A stretch of 64,000 bases of DNA from Minisyncoccota bacterium (GTDB taxonomy: Bacteria > Patescibacteriota > Minisyncoccia > Phycocordibacterales > UBA9973), in NCBI GenBank assembly GCA_041659845.1, contig JBAZXM010000002.1, positions 4 to 64,003 on the forward strand. Reading direction: 5' to 3'. Of the stretch, positions 5,897 through 30,638 are shown in pieces. Positions within the stretch are counted from its first letter, which is position 1, and every line of letters begins with the position of its first letter. The translations under genes and the position numbers were made by a program. Under the pieces are notes generated by a model that made no database searches, was not told the origin of the DNA, and saw only the letters and a program-made list of their open reading frames with translations.

Positions 5897-5956
5897 TTTT
5901 TAATTATAAAAGTATGGTATATTTGTTTTAAATACAGATATTTAAAATTATGCATA

Positions 5957-6265
5957 ATGAAAGAAGCAGAAAGAAGAACCGAGTTAATTAGAAAAGCCGT
6001 TGAAAGTGTAATTTCGCACTATAAAGTAGACAGATTTTATTCCGGTGAGATAGAAAAATTAATAGATGAAGTTTCAGATTCAATTGTTAAAACTGTTGGT
6101 GTGGATACTGAAGTTGATGTTAATAATGTTGCGAATCATGCCTACATAGGAGCTAACCTCATACTTGATCCTCTTGAGCATGCAGGTTCACTCAAGCTTA
6201 ATAGTCATCATTTATCACGGTACATTGCCAGCGCAGTTATTAGTGAGTTTATATTAAAAATGTGA
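5957..6265 (+). CDS. hypothetical protein
   Basis: 102-aa ORF followed by a terminator. Confidence 0.4.
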   Translation: MKEAERRTELIRKAVESVISHYKVDRFYSGEIEKLIDEVSDSIVKTVGVDTEVDVNNVANHAYIGANLILDPLEHAGSLKLNSHHLSRYIASAVISEFILKM

Positions 6266-6271
6266 ACTAGT

Positions 6272-6300
6272 AAAAGCCCTTTTTCTGGGCTTTTTTATTT
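6272..6300. terminator. bidirectional rho-independent terminator
   Basis: AAAAGCCC-tttttct-GGGCTTTTTT. Confidence 0.65.
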
Positions 6301-6370
6301 TATTCAAGTATTTTATTCATTGGAGATTTTTGCTATACTAGCCGCATAGCATTTTAATTTACAGAAATTT

Positions 6371-6856
6371 ATGGAATCACTTTTTTTTTCAAATACAGAT
6401 ATTTTTATCAGACTAGCAGTAGCTATGAGTCTTGGTATGCTTGTCGGGGTGGAACGCCTTCTTGCTCAAAAAACGGCTGGTATGCGCACTTATGCGTTAG
6501 TAGCAATGGGCTCATCTCTTTTTGTGATTATATCTGAAATGATGATAGCTTCTCGAGGTGATCTTATAGGGCTCGATCCGCTTCGTATGGCATCACAAAT
6601 AGTAGTCGGGGTCGGATTTTTGGGTGCTGGATTGATAGTATTCAAAGACGAGCGTGTCGTCGGGCTCACAAGTGCCAGCGGGCTTTGGGTTGCGGCGGGT
6701 ATCGGTGTTGCGGCGGGGTTTGGCCTTTTTTGGCTTTCGATAATGGCAACGATTCTCACACTATTTATTTTCACCGTACTTTGGTTTATTGAAGAATATT
6801 TGAAACGTTTTTCCAGATATAAAAATAATTCAACTAACAACACGGATACTTTGTAA
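6371..6856 (+). CDS. mgtC: MgtC/SapB family membrane protein
   Basis: LAVAMSLGMLVGVERLLAQKTAGMRTYALVAMGSSLF..VGVGFLGAGLI are typical MgtC-family motifs. Confidence 0.65.
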   Translation: MESLFFSNTDIFIRLAVAMSLGMLVGVERLLAQKTAGMRTYALVAMGSSLFVIISEMMIASRGDLIGLDPLRMASQIVVGVGFLGAGLIVFKDERVVGLTSASGLWVAAGIGVAAGFGLFWLSIMATILTLFIFTVLWFIEEYLKRFSRYKNNSTNNTDTL

Positions 6857-20896: not shown

Positions 20897-20899
20897 AAA

Positions 20900-20941
20900 C
20901 CTCATCTACAATCTACGCCATGGCGTAGATTGTAGATGAGG
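20900..20941. repeat. perfect 42-bp palindrome CCTCATCTACAATCTACGCCATGGCGTAGATTGTAGATGAGG (family member 2)
   Basis: Direct read. It shares the outer CATCTACAA..TTGTAGATG arms and the CGCCATGGCG core with the 15807-15842 element. It lies immediately after the dnaJ stop. Confidence 0.9.
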
Positions 20942-21017
20942 TTGGTTGTATTTATAAAAAGTGATACGATAGGAGGGTTATTAAATAATATAAGTTGGAC
21001 GCATTTATTTTTATTTT

Positions 21018-24000
21018 ATGCATCATGTATATATTTTTAGCCATCGATTAAAAAAATATTTCTCCACTAAATTGCCAGCGTTTTTGCTGGCCTTTTTATT
21101 TATTTTTTCACCGGTAGCTCAAATTTTTGCAGAAGAAGTATCACAATCTTCAACTGCAGAAAATATTGAAACACAAGCACCAGAAATTAATCAAACTGAA
21201 ACAACACCAACACCTGAACCCGAACCTCAAAGCCAAGAATCTAACTCAAGCCAATCTTTATCTCAAGCACCAATCTCAAGTTCAACTGCAAATACAAATC
21301 TACCGCCATCAAGTATTAAAGTATTGCTTCCGGAGGCAGACCAAACGACAGGTGCTCTTGTATACAGTTATCCAATAGCTATTCCGTCAGGACGAAATGG
21401 TTTACAACCAGATTTAGGACTTACATATAATAGCCAAAACATGCAGGAGGGTAGTATTTTTGGATCAGGATGGTCGGTAAATATTCCGCAAATTGAACGG
21501 ATTAATCGAAAAGGTTCTGAAAAGCTATATACAGAAAATTATTTCTCCTCCTCACTTGATAGTGAGCTGGTGGAAGTATTCTCAAATGTTTATGCTCCAA
21601 AGGTTGAGAATGGTAGTTTTAATAAATATGAATTTTCTAACAATATTTGGACAGTAACGGATAAAAAAGGAACTGTATATAAATTCGGTCAGACTGCAGT
21701 TTCCCGACAAGATGATCCAAACGATAGTACTAAAGTCTACACATGGACGCTTGAAGAGATAAGAGACACAAACGATAATTATATAAAATATGAATACTAT
21801 AAAGATGATGGACAGATTTATCCTTCTCGCATAATTTACACTGGGAATGGAATAACTGATGGCATTTTTGAAATCAATTTCCTTCGCCAATCGCGAACAG
21901 ATATTGCTCCGATAAACAAGACAGGCTTCAGTGTAAGTACTAATTATCGTGTTTACGAAGTTGATATAAAGACAAGCGGAATATTAACTCATAAATATGA
22001 AATTAGTTACACAACAGGAGATAACGGTGTCCGCTCGCTAGTAAATAGTATTACTGAATCAGGTATCAACCAGGCGACAGGTATAATAACTACACTTCCT
22101 CCGACATCTTTTTCTTATCAAACTAGTACTGCCGGATGGACGCAAGATACTTCCTTAACCGTTCCTGTGACATTTGTTTGGCCGTCTGGTCAAGATGCTG
22201 CAGTCCGTATTCTTGATGTAAATTCTGACGGCTTGCAAGATCTTGTCGTTTCGAGTGGATCATCAGGTGTGAAATCTGTGTATTTAAATAATGGCGGTGG
22301 CTGGGTAGAAGATACTTCTTGGGTAATACCGGAATATATTGTTGATGCCGGGAATAGTGATACAGGTTTTCGATTTTTGGATATAAACGGAGATAATTTG
22401 CCAGATATTATTTTATCAAGATTATGGGATTATAACGGCGATAATACCAAGCATGTGTATATCAATAATGGCAGTGGTTGGGTAGAAGATTTCACTTGGA
22501 CAATACCGGTATATTTTTCAATCCCAGGAGGCGTTGATCCAGGTTCTCGAATTGCCGATATAAATGGTGATGGTCTTCCTGATTTATTAGTTTCAGAAAG
22601 GATGAGTGATACTCAAAAAGTCTATATCAATAATGGTACTAATTGGGTATATGATCAAGCGTGGGTTATTCCGATGTATTTTACTAATATATTTTCGCGT
22701 GACGAAGGTACTATCCTTACTGATATTAACGGCGATGGGCAAGCAGATATTCTTTGGTCGAATAATGCCTTGTCGATGAAGTCTGTTTACATTAATACCG
22801 GCACAGGGTGGACTGAAGATACTACATGGGGGACTATTCCGGAATATTTTCTTGACGGGTCTCGTAAAGACAGAGGGGTACGATTCGCAGATATAAATAG
22901 TGATGGACTGATGGATATTTTGATTTCATATCTCGTGCAAGATAATCAATATGGTCGTACAGAAGAAAAGCATGTTTACATAAATACTGGCAAGGGCTGG
23001 ACGGAAAATACTTCAATCACCATCCCAGTTTTCTTTGTTGATCCTGGCAATGGCGACACTGGCGCTCGTATCAGCGATAATAAGGGTTCAAATTTGTCAG
23101 GTATTATTTTATCAAAACACTTACAGCCTAATTTAGACCAAAAGGAAGCATACAATAAAAATGGTAAAAGGTCAGATCTTCTTTCGCGTATTACATATTC
23201 TACAGGAGGAACAACTGACATCACATATAAATCATCAACACAATATAAAGATGGAAGTACAATATCAAACCCTAATCTTCCATTCGCATTTGATACGGTG
23301 CATCAATTATCTACAAATGATAATAATGGAAATATTTCAACCACTACATACGATTACGAAAATGGTAAGTATTATTTCAATACGCCTTTTGATAGAAAGT
23401 TCGCAGGGTTCGGCGCAATTACAAAAATAGATTCTGTAGGAAATACTGTAAAAACATATTTTCACCAAGGGGATGCCACCAATTCTTCACAAGGAGAATA
23501 CGATGATCATTCTTCAAAAATTGGCAAACCATATCTTATCGAATTCGCTGATGCATCGGGGAATATTTATTCTCGCACTATTAATAAATGGGAAAAGACT
23601 AGCTTAGGAACTGGTCGTGATTTTATTTACCAAAGTCAAAAGATTGATATGGTTTATGACGGCAATGCAACACACAAAGATATTGCCACGGAGTATACCT
23701 ACGATACAGTAAATGGTAACCTTCTCACCCAAGTAAATAGAGGGGAAGTAAATGCTTTACTGAACGGTACATTTACAGATACTGGTAGTGATATGAGCAC
23801 TGCAACTTATACATATAACCAAAATACATCAACAAATGTTTATGCTCCTCAAAATATTATTGTAACGGACGGTCTTTCAAATAAAATTCAAGAATCAAAA
23901 TATTATTATGATGCTTTGGCATATGGGTCAATTAGTAAAGGTAATCCCACAAAAGTAGAGAATTGGAAATCCGGCACATCATATATCTCAACAGAAAAGA

Positions 24001-27000
24001 CATACAATAATTATGGTCTCGTGACTTCTGATAAAGATGCTCGCGGCAAGATTACTTCATATACTTATGATTCGAATAATCTTTACCCGATAACAATTAC
24101 TAACCCACTCAACCACACTATTCAATACACACATGATTCTAGTACGGGCAAAGTCCTTACTACGACAGACCAAAACGGTGTCGTATATATAAATACTTAT
24201 GACGGTTTAGGGAGAATCAAGGAAGAAAAAATTCCGGGCACTATCGCTCCGTATTCTCCGGTTCTAAAAACAGACTATGTTTATACAGACACCTCCGGAG
24301 CAGTCGCAATTCAAAAAACCGAGTATCTCGATGCCTCAAATACCGTTGATACTTATCAGTATTTTGATGGATTGAATCGTCTTACACAAGAAAGGACGGA
24401 AGCGGAAATGGCGGGCGATTTTAATGTTCGTGATATTATTTACAACAATCTCGGCCTTCTTGAAAAAGAATCGTTAAAATATCAAAGTACTGGAAGTGTA
24501 AAGACCACACCGACAACTATACAAGCTCTTTATACCTCGAATACCTACGATCTGTTACAGCGCGTTTTGACTGCAACTAATGCATCCGGTACGACAAGCA
24601 ATATATATGACGGTTGGAAGGTATCTATTACTGATGCAAAAGGTAATGTAAAAAATTTCTACAAAGATGCTTACGGCAATCTCATAAAAGTCGAAGAAAA
24701 AAACGGAACAAGTACATATACGACACTCTATGAATGGAATCTCAACCAGAAACTTACAAAGATTACTGATGCTTTGGGGAATATTCGTAATTTCACCTAC
24801 GATGCTCTGGGTCAGCGTTTAACTGCGGAAGATCTTCACACTCCTACGGATACTACATTCGGCACGTGGACATATACATATGATGACGCTGGTAATATCA
24901 CTCAGACAACGAATCCAAGAGGCCAGATCATTACTTCTACTTATGATGACCTCAATCGAATTCTTACTGAAAGTGTCACTGGCGCACCTCTCGTGGGCGC
25001 TATATATGTGTACGATGTTTGTCTAAATGGTATAGGGAAACTGTGCAATGCTCTGGTGAAAGAAGGATCGACAAACACAGCGTATGCCTATGATTCTCGA
25101 GGGGGAGTCGCACTTGAAACGAAAACAATCAGTGCAATTGCATATCCTACTTCATATACTTACAATCACCAAAATAATATTCTCTCAATCACAACTCCCG
25201 ATTTGGCGGTCACGCAGTACACCTACAATCAAGGCGGGCTATTGGAAAAAATTGAAGTCAAAGAAGCCGGCGGCGCATTTGCAAATATCATTTCAAATTT
25301 TGATTATAATCCGATGGGTCAGATTACTACGCAGAATTTTGCAAACGGTGTTATTACGACCAATACTTATGATTCAGCAAATTTGTACCGCCTAACTCGT
25401 CGTCTAACTCAGAATTCCGCTCTGGAGAAATTACAAGATCTCAATTATACATATGACAATGTCGGAAATATTACCCAGATTATAGATTCATCCAATACCA
25501 ACGGAGCCAAGACTTCAGTATTTGCATATGATGATTTGTATCGTCTTATTTCTACTACAGTTACAAATTCAGCAAACGCTCAAAATTACGCGCAGGCCTA
25601 CACATACGATGCTCTAGGGAATATTCTCACTGGGCCGGCGGGGGCGTATCTTTATCAAGGTAGTACTGGAACAAGTAAAGCTAATTCGCATGCTGTGACT
25701 TCTATAAACGGCGCTGTAATTACTTATGACAATGATGGTAATGTATTAACGAGTGGTGCGCTTACTAACACATGGAATTATCGTGATCAATTAAGTCAGA
25801 CGATAAAACAAACGCCAAGCGTGGTCATAAGTGTTCCAGAAGTGCTAGTATCAGGAATGTCTTTGAGTGCTGTGCCTGTAAAAAACAGTCTTTTAAATAC
25901 TAGAACGTTTGAATCTGCTTCAACTGCCAAAATAATCCAGCCAATTAATGTTTCTGTTCCAATCACAATGAATTATTACTATGACCACACAGGTAGCCGA
26001 GTCTGGTATAAGGTGGATGCAGTAAGTACATATTATCCAAACAAGTTTTATAATACGAGTGGTACGAAAAAAACTAAGAAAATTTTTGCCGGCAATACTC
26101 TCGTCGCGAGCATTGAAACTGTAATCTCAGGGATGACGCCCGTATTAGAAATCAAAACACTGAGTTCTTTGACCAGTTTGGGCGGTTCTTCTGTCGGTGG
26201 TGTTACTACTCCAACAAAGACTATTACCCTGTATTATGTCCACACAGATCATGTTTTGGGTTCAAGCGTCATATCCAATCAATCAGGTACAAAAGTAGAA
26301 CTTCTAGACTACTATCCTTTCGGTCAAATCCGCCTTGATGAGAAAACTGGGAGTTTCAGCGAGCAAAGGAAATTCGGGGGACATATCTACGACCAAGAAA
26401 CAGATTTGAACTATTTGGGCGCAAGGTATTATAATGGAACATGGGGGAGATTTGCATCACAGGATTCCATGTTTTGGAGTCTACCAGATAGTTACCTGCT
26501 TGATCCTCAACAGCAAAATAGCTATAGTTATGCGAGAAATAATCCTGTGGTTTATGTTGATCCAGATGGGAATAGTGCACAATTACCTGCGGGACTCATA
26601 AGTGTCTATCAGTCAATTAAGCAAATATTTACCAATGCTTTTGGTGGACAAAAAAATAATAGTACTCCAGCCCAAGTTACAACTCCAACCCCTAAAGCTC
26701 AACAGGCACAAACTTCAAAAGTAGGACCAGGAGATTATCCGGGTGATGGACATATAAAAAGTGATTATATCAAAATAACTTTTGATCCTGGAGCAGATAA
26801 TTCCCTAAACCAAAAGGCTGTAAATGGTTATGAACAAATATTCGAACAAGCAAGTCAAAGAGGTATAACTTCTGTTAATTTTTCTTCTACGGCTAGATTA
26901 GATAAAGAAAAATTTTCTTGGCATAATTATGGTCTTGCTGGAGATATAAATATTGTTAATGGAATTCATGTTTCAAAAGATAATTCTTATGCAAAAACAT

Positions 27001-27149
27001 TACAGAATGTAATAGATAAAACTCCTGGAGTAAGGGAAAATTTTGGCCCCTTCATAATTAATCATAGTAGTAAAGTGTACTCAATGGAGCAATATGATAC
27101 TTTAAGCAAGGGACATCAAGATCATGTTCATACTTCGTTTAATAAGTAG
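21018..27149 (+). CDS. giant secreted polymorphic toxin combining TcB-like and TcC/RHS-like parts with a C-terminal LAS/M15-type zinc-peptidase toxin domain
   Basis: In order along the protein: a signal peptide; a T/P/S/Q-rich linker; an SpvB-like domain (GALVYSYPIAIPSGRNGLQPDLGLTYNSQN..GSGWSVNIPQIERINRKG); at least five DxNxDGxxD FG-GAP/VCBS loops (LDVNSDGLQDLV, DINGDNLPDII, ADINGDGLPDLL, TDINGDGQADIL, ADINSDGLMDIL); many YD repeats (YTYDALGN, YDGLGR, YDDLNR..); and the RHS core (LYYVHTDHVLGSS..YYPFGQIR..RKFGGHIYDQETDLNYLGARYYNGTWGRFASQDS..YVDPDGN). The tip carries SWHNYGLAGD ... DHVH. Confidence 0.85.
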   Translation: MHHVYIFSHRLKKYFSTKLPAFLLAFLFIFSPVAQIFAEEVSQSSTAENIETQAPEINQTETTPTPEPEPQSQESNSSQSLSQAPISSSTANTNLPPSSIKVLLPEADQTTGALVYSYPIAIPSGRNGLQPDLGLTYNSQNMQEGSIFGSGWSVNIPQIERINRKGSEKLYTENYFSSSLDSELVEVFSNVYAPKVENGSFNKYEFSNNIWTVTDKKGTVYKFGQTAVSRQDDPNDSTKVYTWTLEEIRDTNDNYIKYEYYKDDGQIYPSRIIYTGNGITDGIFEINFLRQSRTDIAPINKTGFSVSTNYRVYEVDIKTSGILTHKYEISYTTGDNGVRSLVNSITESGINQATGIITTLPPTSFSYQTSTAGWTQDTSLTVPVTFVWPSGQDAAVRILDVNSDGLQDLVVSSGSSGVKSVYLNNGGGWVEDTSWVIPEYIVDAGNSDTGFRFLDINGDNLPDIILSRLWDYNGDNTKHVYINNGSGWVEDFTWTIPVYFSIPGGVDPGSRIADINGDGLPDLLVSERMSDTQKVYINNGTNWVYDQAWVIPMYFTNIFSRDEGTILTDINGDGQADILWSNNALSMKSVYINTGTGWTEDTTWGTIPEYFLDGSRKDRGVRFADINSDGLMDILISYLVQDNQYGRTEEKHVYINTGKGWTENTSITIPVFFVDPGNGDTGARISDNKGSNLSGIILSKHLQPNLDQKEAYNKNGKRSDLLSRITYSTGGTTDITYKSSTQYKDGSTISNPNLPFAFDTVHQLSTNDNNGNISTTTYDYENGKYYFNTPFDRKFAGFGAITKIDSVGNTVKTYFHQGDATNSSQGEYDDHSSKIGKPYLIEFADASGNIYSRTINKWEKTSLGTGRDFIYQSQKIDMVYDGNATHKDIATEYTYDTVNGNLLTQVNRGEVNALLNGTFTDTGSDMSTATYTYNQNTSTNVYAPQNIIVTDGLSNKIQESKYYYDALAYGSISKGNPTKVENWKSGTSYISTEKTYNNYGLVTSDKDARGKITSYTYDSNNLYPITITNPLNHTIQYTHDSSTGKVLTTTDQNGVVYINTYDGLGRIKEEKIPGTIAPYSPVLKTDYVYTDTSGAVAIQKTEYLDASNTVDTYQYFDGLNRLTQERTEAEMAGDFNVRDIIYNNLGLLEKESLKYQSTGSVKTTPTTIQALYTSNTYDLLQRVLTATNASGTTSNIYDGWKVSITDAKGNVKNFYKDAYGNLIKVEEKNGTSTYTTLYEWNLNQKLTKITDALGNIRNFTYDALGQRLTAEDLHTPTDTTFGTWTYTYDDAGNITQTTNPRGQIITSTYDDLNRILTESVTGAPLVGAIYVYDVCLNGIGKLCNALVKEGSTNTAYAYDSRGGVALETKTISAIAYPTSYTYNHQNNILSITTPDLAVTQYTYNQGGLLEKIEVKEAGGAFANIISNFDYNPMGQITTQNFANGVITTNTYDSANLYRLTRRLTQNSALEKLQDLNYTYDNVGNITQIIDSSNTNGAKTSVFAYDDLYRLISTTVTNSANAQNYAQAYTYDALGNILTGPAGAYLYQGSTGTSKANSHAVTSINGAVITYDNDGNVLTSGALTNTWNYRDQLSQTIKQTPSVVISVPEVLVSGMSLSAVPVKNSLLNTRTFESASTAKIIQPINVSVPITMNYYYDHTGSRVWYKVDAVSTYYPNKFYNTSGTKKTKKIFAGNTLVASIETVISGMTPVLEIKTLSSLTSLGGSSVGGVTTPTKTITLYYVHTDHVLGSSVISNQSGTKVELLDYYPFGQIRLDEKTGSFSEQRKFGGHIYDQETDLNYLGARYYNGTWGRFASQDSMFWSLPDSYLLDPQQQNSYSYARNNPVVYVDPDGNSAQLPAGLISVYQSIKQIFTNAFGGQKNNSTPAQVTTPTPKAQQAQTSKVGPGDYPGDGHIKSDYIKITFDPGADNSLNQKAVNGYEQIFEQASQRGITSVNFSSTARLDKEKFSWHNYGLAGDINIVNGIHVSKDNSYAKTLQNVIDKTPGVRENFGPFIINHSSKVYSMEQYDTLSKGHQDHVHTSFNK
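26574..27149 (+). other. C-terminal toxin domain of the RHS protein, predicted LAS-family (M15/VanY/L-Ala-D-Glu peptidase-like) zinc peptidase
   Basis: It starts right after the DPDGN autoproteolysis motif. An SxHxxGxAxD motif (KFSWHNYGLAGD) and a C-terminal DxxH plus H (HQDHVH) match the His-Asp-His zinc ligands of LAS enzymes. Confidence 0.6.
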
Positions 27150-27158
27150 ATAAAAAAT

Positions 27159-27593
27159 ATGAAAAATATATTAAAAATTTTGTTTCTTATATTAATAATA
27201 CTGGGAATATATATCATTACTAAACCAAAGCTATCATTTGGTACTTTTACAAATATCCCGGAAAATTTAAAAGATTCTGGCTGTACTTTTTATTGGACAG
27301 AACAAGATGTAAGCAATAAAAATTATGCACTAGTCTCTACTTTTGGAAATACAGAAAATTTAGAACCCAATGCTATTATTTTTATAAATAATAAATTAGA
27401 AGAATTAAATACAAAAGACAGTGATTATCTTTATAAATATAAATATGAAAATAGTAAATATGCTATCAATATAAAAGTTATTAGAAGTACTCTTAACGGG
27501 AATGAAAGTTATTATGAAGAGGGCATTTTAACAGCCAAAGACAATAAGGGAAACAGCATATTACGTAATATTATAGGATATTGCGGAGTTTAA
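27159..27593 (+). CDS. candidate immunity protein for the peptidase toxin (small exported/membrane-anchored protein)
   Basis: 144 aa with a signal anchor (MKNILKILFLILIILGIYIITKP). It starts 10 nt after the toxin stop and is very AT-rich. Confidence 0.45.
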   Translation: MKNILKILFLILIILGIYIITKPKLSFGTFTNIPENLKDSGCTFYWTEQDVSNKNYALVSTFGNTENLEPNAIIFINNKLEELNTKDSDYLYKYKYENSKYAINIKVIRSTLNGNESYYEEGILTAKDNKGNSILRNIIGYCGV

Positions 27594-27638: not shown

Positions 27639-28256
27639 ATGTATAAAATAGGAAAGAAAATAGGAATAAATGATAAAAATATATACAGCACAGTTTTTAT
27701 TGTAATTGTTTTTATTACTCTATCAACGTTTTTCTTAAAAAGTTCTTCTAAAAATAATCAACCTATAGAAATTATTAATAACAATCAATTTAAAGAATGG
27801 AATAATTTTTTTGTTAAAAATACAGAAATTTTTACAACCAGTGATTGGTTTACATATGAAGGTAAAAATATAGGCGAATTTTCAATCGCCCTTCCAAATG
27901 ATTGGAAATTAGAAGGAAGTGTTTTTACAAATAACAATGATCAAAAAGTTGCAGAATTTTCTCCAGGTCTGGTTCAATTAAAAAATAATCAGAGTTGTTT
28001 TGATGTTGAATGGAGTAATGAAGATGGAGAGAGTGAAATGATCTCCCTAAATGATATTGAGATAGGGTCATTAAAAGGCAAACTACTTGTTGAAAAAGCG
28101 CCCGCATGGGAGGAAAGTGCTAATAAATATTTATATCCATATTTTTATTGTTTATCAAATGGACATAACGCTTTTGTAATGACTTTTTATGAATGGAATT
28201 TGGAATTAACTGATACAGAGTTACATAATAAAATTCTTAGTACATTGAGGTTCTAA
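27639..28256 (+). CDS. hypothetical membrane-anchored protein (possible orphan immunity gene)
   Basis: 205 aa with an N-terminal TM (IYSTVFIVIVFITLSTFFL). AT-rich. Confidence 0.4.
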   Translation: MYKIGKKIGINDKNIYSTVFIVIVFITLSTFFLKSSSKNNQPIEIINNNQFKEWNNFFVKNTEIFTTSDWFTYEGKNIGEFSIALPNDWKLEGSVFTNNNDQKVAEFSPGLVQLKNNQSCFDVEWSNEDGESEMISLNDIEIGSLKGKLLVEKAPAWEESANKYLYPYFYCLSNGHNAFVMTFYEWNLELTDTELHNKILSTLRF

Positions 28257-28289: not shown

Positions 28290-29252
28290 ATGATCGCGAA
28301 TATTAAAATGAAAAAGTCAAAAATTATTAAATCAGCAATTATAGTCGTATTAATAGTTTTAGTTCTTGCTAGTTATTATTTACATCAAATAAACATTATC
28401 AATAATATTGATCAAAAAGTTCATTCTATGAATGGTGGAACTTTTAGGTATGGCATAGAAAATCTAAATAACGAAGAATTTTTGGAGAATATGACGGATG
28501 GTGGTGGGGGGCTTGTTGGATATTTTAGAGGTAGTGAGTTGATAAAAATGGTCGAACGGGTTGGTCTTTCCTATGGCACCCAAAATTTTCAGTTTTATTA
28601 TGAAAATGAAAAATTAATCTTTGCCTACCATGAACATAGATTTTTTAATCATAATGAAGATGGCTCAAAAGATTATGACCACCCGGGATTTCTTTTGGCC
28701 ACCAAATATTATTTCAAGGATGGAAAGTTATTTAAAAAAGAATTTCACAGAGAAAAGAATTTCCCAACAGGTTATGACATTACTATAGAATTTTTATTAG
28801 CACAATCAGAAAGAAATTCTAAAATTATTTCAGAATTCAAAAACAAGGAGTATTACGGAGAATGGATGGTATACAAATCTATGTCTCCTCAAAATATGGT
28901 GACTTTCGAAGAAGAGCCCTTAACTAAAGAACAAATTAATGAATTTTCAAATTCTAAAATTATTTTAGAGAAAGAAAAAGCGATTTTATCAGGAAATATT
29001 TGCAATAATCCAGAATATGTTAAGGTTGAAGAAACTCCTTTTGATTATTTTCTAAATAATTATAAAGTTGTTATTAATGAAGAAACTGGAAGTACAACCG
29101 CTTTAGATAAAAAATCTTTAGGCATAAACTCGGAATTTTCTGATATTGTAGAAATAAAATGTAATAACGATTACTATACTCTCTTAATCACTAACTCAAA
29201 AGAATCATTGCTTGAGTATAAAAATACTTTTTTCTTTTTAACAAAAAACTGA
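28290..29252 (+). CDS. hypothetical membrane-anchored protein (possible orphan immunity gene)
   Basis: 320 aa with an N-terminal TM (IIKSAIIVVLIVLVLASYYL). AT-rich. Confidence 0.4.
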   Translation: MIANIKMKKSKIIKSAIIVVLIVLVLASYYLHQINIINNIDQKVHSMNGGTFRYGIENLNNEEFLENMTDGGGGLVGYFRGSELIKMVERVGLSYGTQNFQFYYENEKLIFAYHEHRFFNHNEDGSKDYDHPGFLLATKYYFKDGKLFKKEFHREKNFPTGYDITIEFLLAQSERNSKIISEFKNKEYYGEWMVYKSMSPQNMVTFEEEPLTKEQINEFSNSKIILEKEKAILSGNICNNPEYVKVEETPFDYFLNNYKVVINEETGSTTALDKKSLGINSEFSDIVEIKCNNDYYTLLITNSKESLLEYKNTFFFLTKN

Positions 29253-29336: not shown

Positions 29337-30638
29337 ATGAATAAAAACACAATCGCTATTATCAGTGCTCTTGGAATAATTATTCTCACTGGAGTAGTTG
29401 GATATTTTCTTCTTACTTCAAAAACACAGCCACAGCCCATTAAGGTTATAAGTTCTTTTGAGGAATGCGCACAAGCCGGCTATCCGATTTTAGAGAGCTA
29501 TCCCGAACAATGCCAAACTCCCGACGGGCAATCGTTTACAAAAGGACTCACTCCTCAAGAAGCAGTTTTGGGAAATCAGGTCACACTTCGCGTAAATGAG
29601 CAGGTAAAATTTGATGACGGCTTAGTAATAACGCTCACGGAAATCAATGACTCGCGCTGCAAACAAGGCGTGCAGTGCATATGGCAGGGTGAGCTTTCAT
29701 CTACATTCATTATTCTTGGTGGAAATGTTTCTGAGTTTAAAGAAATACAATTAGGAACAGTAACCGCTAAAAGCGCAACACAAAACGGGTACACGTTTAC
29801 ATTAAAAGAGGCGACTGAAATCAATGCGACGATCACGGTAACTAAGAAGGCGACTATTTCTCCGCCCACTCCAACACCAACCCCAATTCCACCAGTTGCG
29901 TGCACCGCTGATGCAAAACAATGTTCTGATGGATCGTATGTGGGAAGAACAGGACCAAAATGCGAATTCACAGCATGTCCGGGGGAAAACTCCGCTCAAG
30001 TATCTTTACGAGAGGGGCAACGTGAGGGACCATTGCTCGTTCAAAAAATTTATCCTACATATATCACCGGGCAAGTCTATAGAGAATATCCGGTAGCAAC
30101 CGATCAGGGCTCGCCGATAACAATGTACATCGGAGATAGTGCTTCAAATGGATGTACGGTAACACTGACGCTTATCAGAATCCAAAATGGAATAGCCGTG
30201 TTCACGAAAACAACAGATTATAATCGTCCGTGTCCGATATGTCTTGCTGAAAATACTTTTATCGATACGCCCGCAGGGGAGATAGCAGTCCAGAATCTTA
30301 CGGCAGGAATGGAAGTTTGGACAGTAAATAATTCTGGGATAAAAGTTTCAGCAAAGATTCTTAAAACCGGAAGAACATTGGTGCCAGAAACTCATCGCGT
30401 AATGCATTTTGTTTTGAGTGATAACCGCGAGCTTTTTGTCTCACCCGGGCATCCGACAAGTGATGGCCGACTCGCCGGCACTGTTTTGGCTGGAGACACG
30501 CTCGATGGTGCAAAAGTACTCAGCGCTATACTCGTCCCTTATGAAGACGAATATACCTACGATATACTTCCAGCTGGAGAAACTGGACAGTACTGGTCTA
30601 ACGGAATTCTCATGAGTAGTACGTTAATAACTAGCTAG
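29337..30638 (+). CDS. secreted Cys-rich protein with a C-terminal Hint (hedgehog/intein-like, BIL-type) autoprocessing domain
   Basis: A signal anchor, Cys-containing modules and a PPTPTPTPIPP linker. The protein then runs CLAENTFIDTPAGEIAVQNL..GMEVWT..TGRTLVPETHRVMHF..SPGHPTSDGRLAGTVLAGDTL (Hint block A Cys, block B TxxH) and ends at the Hint domain. Confidence 0.6.
   Translation: MNKNTIAIISALGIIILTGVVGYFLLTSKTQPQPIKVISSFEECAQAGYPILESYPEQCQTPDGQSFTKGLTPQEAVLGNQVTLRVNEQVKFDDGLVITLTEINDSRCKQGVQCIWQGELSSTFIILGGNVSEFKEIQLGTVTAKSATQNGYTFTLKEATEINATITVTKKATISPPTPTPTPIPPVACTADAKQCSDGSYVGRTGPKCEFTACPGENSAQVSLREGQREGPLLVQKIYPTYITGQVYREYPVATDQGSPITMYIGDSASNGCTVTLTLIRIQNGIAVFTKTTDYNRPCPICLAENTFIDTPAGEIAVQNLTAGMEVWTVNNSGIKVSAKILKTGRTLVPETHRVMHFVLSDNRELFVSPGHPTSDGRLAGTVLAGDTLDGAKVLSAILVPYEDEYTYDILPAGETGQYWSNGILMSSTLITS

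Follow-up and report, generated by a model that had tools for sequence, protein, structure and literature searches.

What does the unannotated end of a giant RHS protein from a bacterium of the candidate phyla radiation (CPR) do? The protein is encoded by open reading frame (ORF) 21018-27149 of the stretch of DNA analysed here, 64,000 nucleotides of contig JBAZXM010000002.1 (the window), whose source metagenome-assembled genome (MAG) is labelled Candidatus Paceibacterota bacterium (CPR) in the public record. There the protein (MFA5933696.1) is named “FG-GAP-like repeat-containing protein” or “RHS repeat-associated protein”, and its C-terminal tip carries no annotation. An initial annotation had proposed that this tip is a peptidoglycan-cleaving zinc peptidase of the LAS superfamily, opposed by exported candidate immunity proteins encoded downstream. 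Sequence comparisons, a structure model and the gene neighbourhood suggest that the tip is a peptidoglycan-cleaving toxin which is neutralised by the product of the next gene, ORF 27159-27593, a reading to which we assign a probability of about 0.7.

The tip sits where an RHS toxin would be expected. From the N-terminus onwards, the protein is made up of a signal peptide, an SpvB region, FG-GAP repeats, an RHS/YD shell, an Rhs-associated core, a linker and the LAS tip. Pfam recognizes RHS_repeat (90.6 bits, eight stretches), FG-GAP_3 (78 bits, several repeats) and SpvB (56.5 bits), and NCBIfam recognizes YD_repeat_2x (57.6 bits) and Rhs_assc_core (59.1 bits against a cutoff of 32.5, E = 4.6e-16), the latter matched over model positions 1-75 of 76. 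The core terminates in PVVYVDPDGN (aa 1843-1852), and RHS/YD repeats together with a core that ends in a PxxxxDPxG boundary, by which RHS polymorphic toxins are recognized, are both present. Since DPDGN (aa 1848-1852, nt 26559-26573) lies directly before position 26574, the tip begins exactly at the canonical RHS toxin boundary; the segment 26574-27149 is read in frame 1 as the C-terminal 191 residues of the protein and the stop codon. Core sequence features expected for an Rhs aspartyl autoprotease are also present in the translation (DQETDLNYLGARYYNGTWGRFASQDS). At the other end of the protein, a Sec signal peptide is predicted from a basic n-region, a hydrophobic core and an A-x-x-x-A-like end.

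A word-indexed search with the tip alone returned no relatives among 5.8 billion proteins, and phmmer against the PDB gave nothing meaningful, the top match being a spurious exonuclease (E = 0.064). NCBIfam, PHROGs and Rfam held nothing relevant for the tip, ORF 27159 or the window. An exhaustive HMMER search of 1.84 billion representatives retrieved 117 relatives of the tip at E <= 1e-3, of which 34 at E <= 1e-10. The nearest is an RHS protein of 2083 aa (P0002), which is 61% identical over the domain. Several other RHS proteins, of 1000-2300 aa, end in the domain (P0009, P0014, P0015, P0017, P0021, P0025 and P0027), and many members are stand-alone proteins of 136-300 aa, so that the family is found on differing RHS bodies and on other scaffolds.

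The motifs reported by the initial annotation are all in place after DPDGN: KFSWHNYGLAGD is present in the tip, SWHNYGLAGD (aa 1967-1976) fits SxHxxGxAxD exactly, and HQDHVH (aa 2033-2038) ends five residues from the C-terminus. Across all six reading frames of the 64-kb window there is a single SxHxxGxAxD, against 0.01 expected from residue shuffles, but homology argues more strongly than rarity against a chance occurrence, because the motif residues are invariant columns of the family. In an alignment of 50 family sequences (A1, in which domain numbering plus 1901 gives ORF numbering), H68, D75, H132 and H135 are invariant, and H137 and the element R-E-N-[FY]-G-P are at least 90% conserved. 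Residue conservation was also counted over 217 retrieved family sequences, with denominators that vary per position. H1969 is kept in 211/213 and D1976 in 216/216 sequences, and the C-terminal histidines H2033, H2036 and H2038 in 209/211, 211/211 and 209/211. The His and Asp residues put forward earlier as zinc ligands thus appear as invariant positions of the family alignment. A subgroup from Bacteroidota has a 3-residue insertion which lengthens the His-to-Asp spacer. The C-terminal motif had been read as DxxH. Position D2035 is Asp in only 117/211 sequences (55%), with Asn in 57 and Thr in 18, and the conserved C-terminal signature is therefore H-x2-H-x-H.

AlphaFold without a multiple sequence alignment gave an unusable model of the tip (predicted local distance difference test, pLDDT, of 44.5). 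With alignment A1, the mean pLDDT was 94.5 and the predicted template modelling score 0.89, with 126 of the 142 residues at a pLDDT of at least 90; the initial nine residues of the modelled segment have low values, and the first 10-residue block averages 64. The model has the alpha/beta fold of LAS (hedgehog/DD-peptidase) proteins, a central antiparallel sheet packed on helices, and the signature of that group, H-x(3-6)-D plus H-x-H, is kept across the homologues. In the model, D1976 belongs to strand 73-79; the last strand (136-140) holds H2038 and is immediately preceded by H2036 (model residue 135), a placement which fits the LAS topology.

Structure comparison of the model scored highest with the Drosophila and Sonic hedgehog N-domains (11.4-11.1), followed by MepA (9.5), the C-terminal domain of VldE (9.1), LdcB (8.5), the Streptomyces Zn DD-peptidase 1lbu (8.4), VanX (8.4), VanXYc and VanXYg (8.4 and 8.2), VanYB (8.0), Ply500 (7.4), LysB4 (7.2), the T5 endolysin (6.5), the RB49 peptidase (5.6) and DacB (5.3). 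Foldseek placed MepA at the top (E = 2.8e-4) and then hedgehog-N, VldE, VanXYc, LdcB, ChiX and VanY, and among viral models the matches were peptidoglycan-hydrolysing tape-measure domains, M15A peptidases and endolysins. Against PDB sequences, the A1 profile matched VldE with both motifs aligned (E = 0.0031, about 22% identity, a weak similarity) and the N-products of Sonic, Indian and Desert hedgehog (E = 0.005-0.05). The best Pfam match of the tip is Peptidase_M15_4 at 18.0-18.8 bits against a cutoff of 25 (E = 0.0026-0.0043), and it spans only 24-25 residues. A Pfam scan of 50 relatives gave weak recurring matches to Peptidase_M15_4 (16/50, all below the 25-bit threshold), M15_3 (8), Extensin-like_C (7) and VanY (5), and rarer ones to HH_signal (3), DUF5715 (2) and M74 (1), all of which belong to one peptidase group. 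The LAS fold that had been predicted is thus returned both by the alignment-based model and by the fold comparisons, and we are confident that the tip is a LAS-fold metalloenzyme domain.

The profile alignments also point to an active site. H1969 corresponds to H301 of VldE and to the His of SLHYEGRAVD in Sonic hedgehog (Shh), D1976 to VldE D308 and the Asp of the same Shh motif, H2036 to VldE H373 and the first His of Shh HIH, and H2038 to VldE H375 and the second His of HIH; H2033 and D2035 align with VldE H370 and D372 and are unaligned in Shh. In crystal structures of VldE, the catalytic zinc is held by H301, D308 and H375, H373-x-H375 is the canonical LAS HxH, and H370, D372 and E368 extend the site (PMC11667670). 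The spacing in the tip is exactly the H-x6-D plus H-x-H given by Roelink as the Hh/DD-peptidase motif (PMC6027127). From these correspondences and this spacing, H1969, D1976 and H2038 are predicted to be the zinc ligands and H2036 the catalytic His, and H2033, an extra invariant His, would be accessory, possibly with a second-metal or regulatory role. Judged by these residues, the tip is of the HxH subtype (M15A, M74, hedgehog, VldE) and not of the [DE]xxH subtype (M15B, M15C, M15D). The family lacks the consistent Asp three residues ahead of the ligand His which marks M15C, and the L-Ala-D-Glu-peptidase (M15C) flavour given to the tip by the initial annotation is not supported, as a canonical HxH, and not DxxH, supplies the third ligand and the catalytic His.

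A second conserved element is specific to the family. RENFGP at 27036-27050 of the window (aa 2006-2011) represents the near-invariant R-E-N-[FY]-G-P, in which E2007 is kept in 210/215, the Gly in 212/215 and the Pro in 213/215 sequences. The profile alignments identified no counterpart of it in VldE or hedgehog, and its Glu could be a catalytic or substrate-binding residue peculiar to the tip family.

That the tip is a toxin acting outside the cytoplasm is argued most strongly by its coupling to an exported partner. The ATG of ORF 27159 lies 9 nt 3' of the RHS stop codon with no terminator in between, and its product is recorded as a “hypothetical protein” (MFA5933697.1). The closest RHS homologue is a gene of Candidatus Nomurabacteria MAG JAPLXO01 (L002), which has a neighbourhood unlike that in the window and is directly followed by a gene for a 148-aa protein that is 45% identical to ORF 27159 (E = 2e-39). 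A scan of 185,579 species-representative genomes with a 6-sequence alignment as query found the tip domain in nine loci, and in eight of them, from CPR and Bacteroidota, a homologue of ORF 27159 directly follows the tip (E = 4.5e-41 to 2e-8). These eight are two loci of Ca. Nomurabacteria, one each of Hoylesella marshii, H. timonensis, an uncultured Prevotella and Pedobacter, and two of Mucilaginibacter; the sole locus without the adjacent homologue is a weak, partial Streptomyces match. The homologues share a signal or anchor at the N-terminus, and the cysteines C42 and C142 are invariant in them, a pattern that fits an exported, disulfide-bonded domain. Their family comprises 66 clusters, all “hypothetical”, and has no Pfam domain and no PDB relative. 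ORF 27159-27593 very likely encodes the immunity protein of the tip and represents an unannotated family.

The initial annotation had regarded several exported proteins downstream as candidate immunity factors, a role that has support for ORF 27159 and none for the two membrane-anchored ORFs that follow. ORFs 27639 and 28290 were considered as further immunity genes and rejected, given that the former has no homologue at related loci (its only match is a duplicate contig of the same sequence) and the latter has one, in the same relative position, only in a contig from Ca. Nomurabacteria (L003, JAHFNT010000003.1).

Homologues of ORF 27159 also occur without an adjacent LAS tip in metagenome contigs (L012-L015), where they lie beside Y1 transposase or Fic genes; L012 carries two of them in tandem. 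These copies look like orphan or acquired immunity genes. Orphan and tandem immunity copies are typical of interbacterial toxin systems.

Table 1. Coordinates of the RHS protein, its predicted toxin tip and the genes directly downstream (positions in the window)
Feature	Position	Strand	Details
RHS polymorphic-toxin ORF	21018..27149	+	2043 aa; from ORF list and translation
Predicted Sec signal peptide	21018..21131	+	aa 1-38; MHHVYIFSHRLKKYFSTKLPAFLLAFLFIFSPVAQIFA, followed by EE
Rhs-associated core	26310..26573	+	aa 1765-1851; TIGR03696
Tip linker	26574..26720	+	aa 1853-1901; short amphipathic stretch, then P/T/Q-rich low-complexity segment; outside the conserved family domain
LAS-fold (hedgehog/DD-peptidase-type) zinc-metallopeptidase domain, predicted	26721..27146	+	aa 1902-2043; 142 residues; toxin domain
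H-x6-D motif	26922..26945	+	H1969 (26922-26924) and D1976 (26943-26945), inside SWHNYGLAGD; predicted first and second zinc ligands
H-x2-H-x-H motif, HQDHVH	27114..27131	+	H2033, H2036 and H2038 invariant; D2035 variable
Predicted cognate immunity protein	27159..27593	+	144 aa; N-terminal signal-anchor helix, exported domain with invariant Cys42 and Cys142
Membrane-anchored ORF in low-GC island	27639-28256	+	205 aa; no family matches
Membrane-anchored ORF in low-GC island	28290-29252	+	320 aa; no family matches

The GC content is 0.39-0.41 along the RHS body. A low-GC island (0.23-0.33) begins inside the tip and runs from about 26,700 to about 29,300, spanning the catalytic domain and ORFs 27159, 27639 and 28290; in ORF 29337 the GC content climbs to 0.43-0.47. 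Between the window protein and P0002, the RHS bodies are 30-45% identical and the tip domains 60-63%, which is the reverse of the conserved body and variable tip usually seen among close strains. In L003, the second gene 3' of the homologous RHS gene (5906-6784) has an N-terminal part homologous to ORF 28290 and ends in a degenerate stretch of about 65 residues left from a LAS tip (profile positions 72-136, E = 8e-14), which lacks HxxHxH and is likely the scar of a tip displacement. The GC break, the identity contrast between tip and body, and the L003 remnant together fit the mobile tip-plus-immunity module known for RHS loci, and the exchangeable C-terminal toxin with an adjacent immunity gene that characterizes RHS polymorphic toxins is found here.

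The RHS locus is chromosomal and lies directly 3' of grpE-dnaK-dnaJ and a terminator with a 20-bp stem. This perfect hairpin, at 20899-20942 directly after dnaJ and 75 nt 5' of the RHS start codon, probably ends the grpE-dnaK-dnaJ operon, in which case the RHS gene would have its own promoter. On the other side of the island, ORF 29337-30638 (+, 433 aa) encodes an N-terminal transmembrane helix, a PTPTPTP linker and a C-terminal Hint_2 (hedgehog/intein) region that scores 27.5 bits against a Pfam threshold of 28.4. It is located four genes 3' of a tip whose top structural match is the hedgehog N-domain. A link between the two was considered and rejected, as this ORF differs in GC content and lies outside the cassette, and the proximity is probably a coincidence.

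In the mechanism we propose, a Sec-exported RHS cocoon of Ca. Paceibacterota would carry the tip as its toxic cargo, and the tip would be an active zinc metallopeptidase of the LAS type. The Rhs core would cut the chain at the DPxG boundary, and the tip of about 190 residues would be freed from the shell or carried inside it. Zn2+ would be held by H1969, D1976 and H2038, and H2036 would help the water molecule to attack, an arrangement shared with MepA, VldE and the Streptomyces DD-peptidase. The tip would then cleave a peptide bond in the stem peptides or cross-links of the peptidoglycan of a neighbouring cell and so weaken its wall, while the membrane-anchored, extracytoplasmic product of ORF 27159 would guard the wall of the producer, presumably by binding and blocking the active-site cleft. 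MepA cuts the bond between D-Ala and meso-diaminopimelate. VldE cuts between L-Ala and D-isoglutamine (PMC11667670). By analogy with these two enzymes, endopeptidase activity is the best guess for the tip.

Small size, reduction and, often, an epibiotic life are features of CPR bacteria, whose envelope is usually described as Gram-positive-like. The wall of a monoderm target would be reachable from outside, and a membrane-crossing injector would be unneeded. With a CPR bacterium as host, the periplasm of a target cell, where the initial annotation had placed the action of the tip, is just one possible site.

Several observations weigh against a wall-cleaving toxin. No Pfam or NCBIfam peptidase family reaches its curated threshold on the tip, and the PDB sequence matches of the A1 profile are marginal (E about 3e-3). 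LAS domains are not always peptidoglycan hydrolases, hedgehog-N being a signalling ligand and VanX a cytoplasmic dipeptidase. No delivery apparatus, whether a type VI secretion system (T6SS) or TcA-like, was seen beside the RHS ORF. In one alternative, the LAS domain would be no toxin, serving instead as a housekeeping module that remodels the producer's own wall and helps the 2043-aa protein to cross it or anchor in it (as TagX does for T6SS), or as a non-catalytic binder like hedgehog-N. Many LAS enzymes are indeed autolysins (VldE, MepA, LdcB), and about half of the tip family lacks an RHS scaffold and consists of small proteins of 136-150 aa that stand alone. Such a role is nevertheless highly improbable, given that the domain occupies the exact exchangeable position after the DPxG boundary of the Rhs core and has a dedicated exported partner gene across phyla, which is also found as an orphan. 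The degraded remnant in L003 is what displacement of a toxin cassette leaves behind, and the invariance of all catalytic-type residues runs contrary to a purely binding role.

Other alternatives concern what the enzyme attacks. One is an M15C-type L-Ala-D-Glu peptidase like the endolysins of phage T5 and Ply500, with SxHxxGxAxD, DxxH and its Asp as catalytic base. We regard it as unlikely. The DxxH Asp is found in only 117/211 sequences and gives way to Asn in 57, whereas all 211 have a His two positions ahead of the ligand His, which is the HxH arrangement shared by M15A, M74, hedgehog and VldE; in the structure comparison, hedgehog-N, MepA, VldE, LdcB and the DD-peptidase all score above the M15C structures, and the Pfam match to M15_4 is the short, sub-threshold one round the first motif. 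The lethal substrate might also be something other than mature peptidoglycan. A LAS-fold tip could act as a dipeptidase or carboxypeptidase similar to VanX or VanY and block cross-linking by trimming the D-Ala-D-Ala of lipid II or of nascent stems, or it could cleave a surface protein. This we hold to be improbable: in sequence and in structure, the tip is nearest to endopeptidases (VldE, MepA) and to hedgehog-N, and the catalytic Glu of the VanX/VanY ExxH is absent, its position being the variable D2035. The tip would in that case still be an extracytoplasmic toxin of the cell-wall pathway, and only the attacked bond would differ from that in a toxin of mature peptidoglycan. The same enzyme could also serve another purpose, with the RHS cocoon and LAS peptidase as part of an episymbiotic attack or attachment apparatus which opens the host wall locally for feeding or entry rather than as a competition weapon, and with ORF 27159 guarding the wall of the epibiont; this idea is tentative, and we give it a small chance. 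HINT and SuFu components have already been traced to polymorphic-toxin systems. Such toxin tips may, in parallel, be a bacterial reservoir of the hedgehog “Hedge” domain, a notion more remote than the episymbiotic one.

If the tip is a peptidoglycan-cleaving toxin with its own immunity protein, a giant CPR protein named publicly only after its repeats gains a concrete and testable biochemical role for the end that has carried no annotation. The tip would also define a LAS-fold toxin family not classified before, with about 117 representative clusters, both RHS-borne and stand-alone, in CPR, Bacteroidota and other bacteria, paired with the unannotated exported immunity family described above. 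Wall-directed cargo need not pass the cytoplasmic membrane of the target, which is relevant for organisms without obvious injection machinery. The toxin/immunity pair would further supply a natural protein inhibitor of a LAS peptidase, and this could aid the study of VldE-like and MepA-like enzymes. To our knowledge, wall-acting zinc-metallopeptidase tips have rarely been documented on RHS scaffolds, and a search of the literature on CPR RHS or peptidoglycan-hydrolase toxins found nothing pertinent. Because the tip falls below every Pfam peptidase threshold and is unannotated in the public record, it is classed as a new sequence family within the LAS superfamily, accompanied by a new immunity family, on a scaffold of known type and with no new mechanism.

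The closest sequence relative with a solved structure is the C-terminal “MT3” domain of VldE (Spr1875) from Streptococcus pneumoniae (PDB 9FLH-9FLM; PMC11667670). Its HYDHVH resembles the HQDHVH of the tip, both reading as an extended H-x-D-H-x-H; at a profile E-value of only 0.0031 and about 22% identity, the tip may be of the VldE/MT3 type. VldE differs in that it is a LysM-anchored housekeeping or stress autolysin with no immunity partner, whereas the tip occupies a toxin position; moreover, Arg294 and the zinc-zipper Glu368 of VldE are not evidently kept in the tip family, and R-E-N-[FY]-G-P of the tip aligns to unrelated VldE residues. MepA (MEROPS M74) and the Zn DD-peptidase of Streptomyces albus (M15A) are periplasmic or secreted housekeeping enzymes, the solved chains of which have 213-240 residues and extra subdomains; they are 14-18% identical to the tip and lack an RHS context. 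The identity of the tip to the hedgehog N-domain and to bacHh is only 12-15%. Whereas bacHh proteins are more than 50% identical to the Sonic hedgehog N-domain (PMC6027127), the tip family has no such identity; the tip itself has no match to HH_signal (PF01085), and the matches in 3 of the 50 relatives are sub-threshold.

As regards toxins, the available part of the catalogue of Zhang et al. 2012 contains RHS polymorphic toxins with wall-targeting tips of the NlpC/P60 and YkuD-type L,D-peptidase kinds (PMC3482391). The RHS scaffold, the exchangeable C-terminal toxin and the linked immunity gene described in that part are the same as here, but its peptidases are thiol peptidases, whereas the tip is a predicted zinc metallopeptidase; the terms “VanY”, “M15” and “D-Ala-D-Ala” do not occur in that portion of the text, and “hedgehog” occurs there only in signalling contexts (PMC3482391). 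Interbacterial effectors directed at the wall are well known, and predicted M15-like or MepA-like peptidase effectors have been described from T6SS, namely Tpe14AB (PMC6833914) and the WHIX effectors (PMC12135965). They share with the tip the use of a LAS or M15-type peptidase as an extracytoplasmic interbacterial toxin with an adjacent immunity gene. Tpe14AB and the WHIX effectors are T6SS cargo or VgrG-linked proteins of Proteobacteria with LysM or WHIX modules, whereas in the window a CPR bacterium encodes an RHS protein with a Sec signal, whose post-DPxG tip would be the toxin, and the toxin and immunity families are both unannotated.

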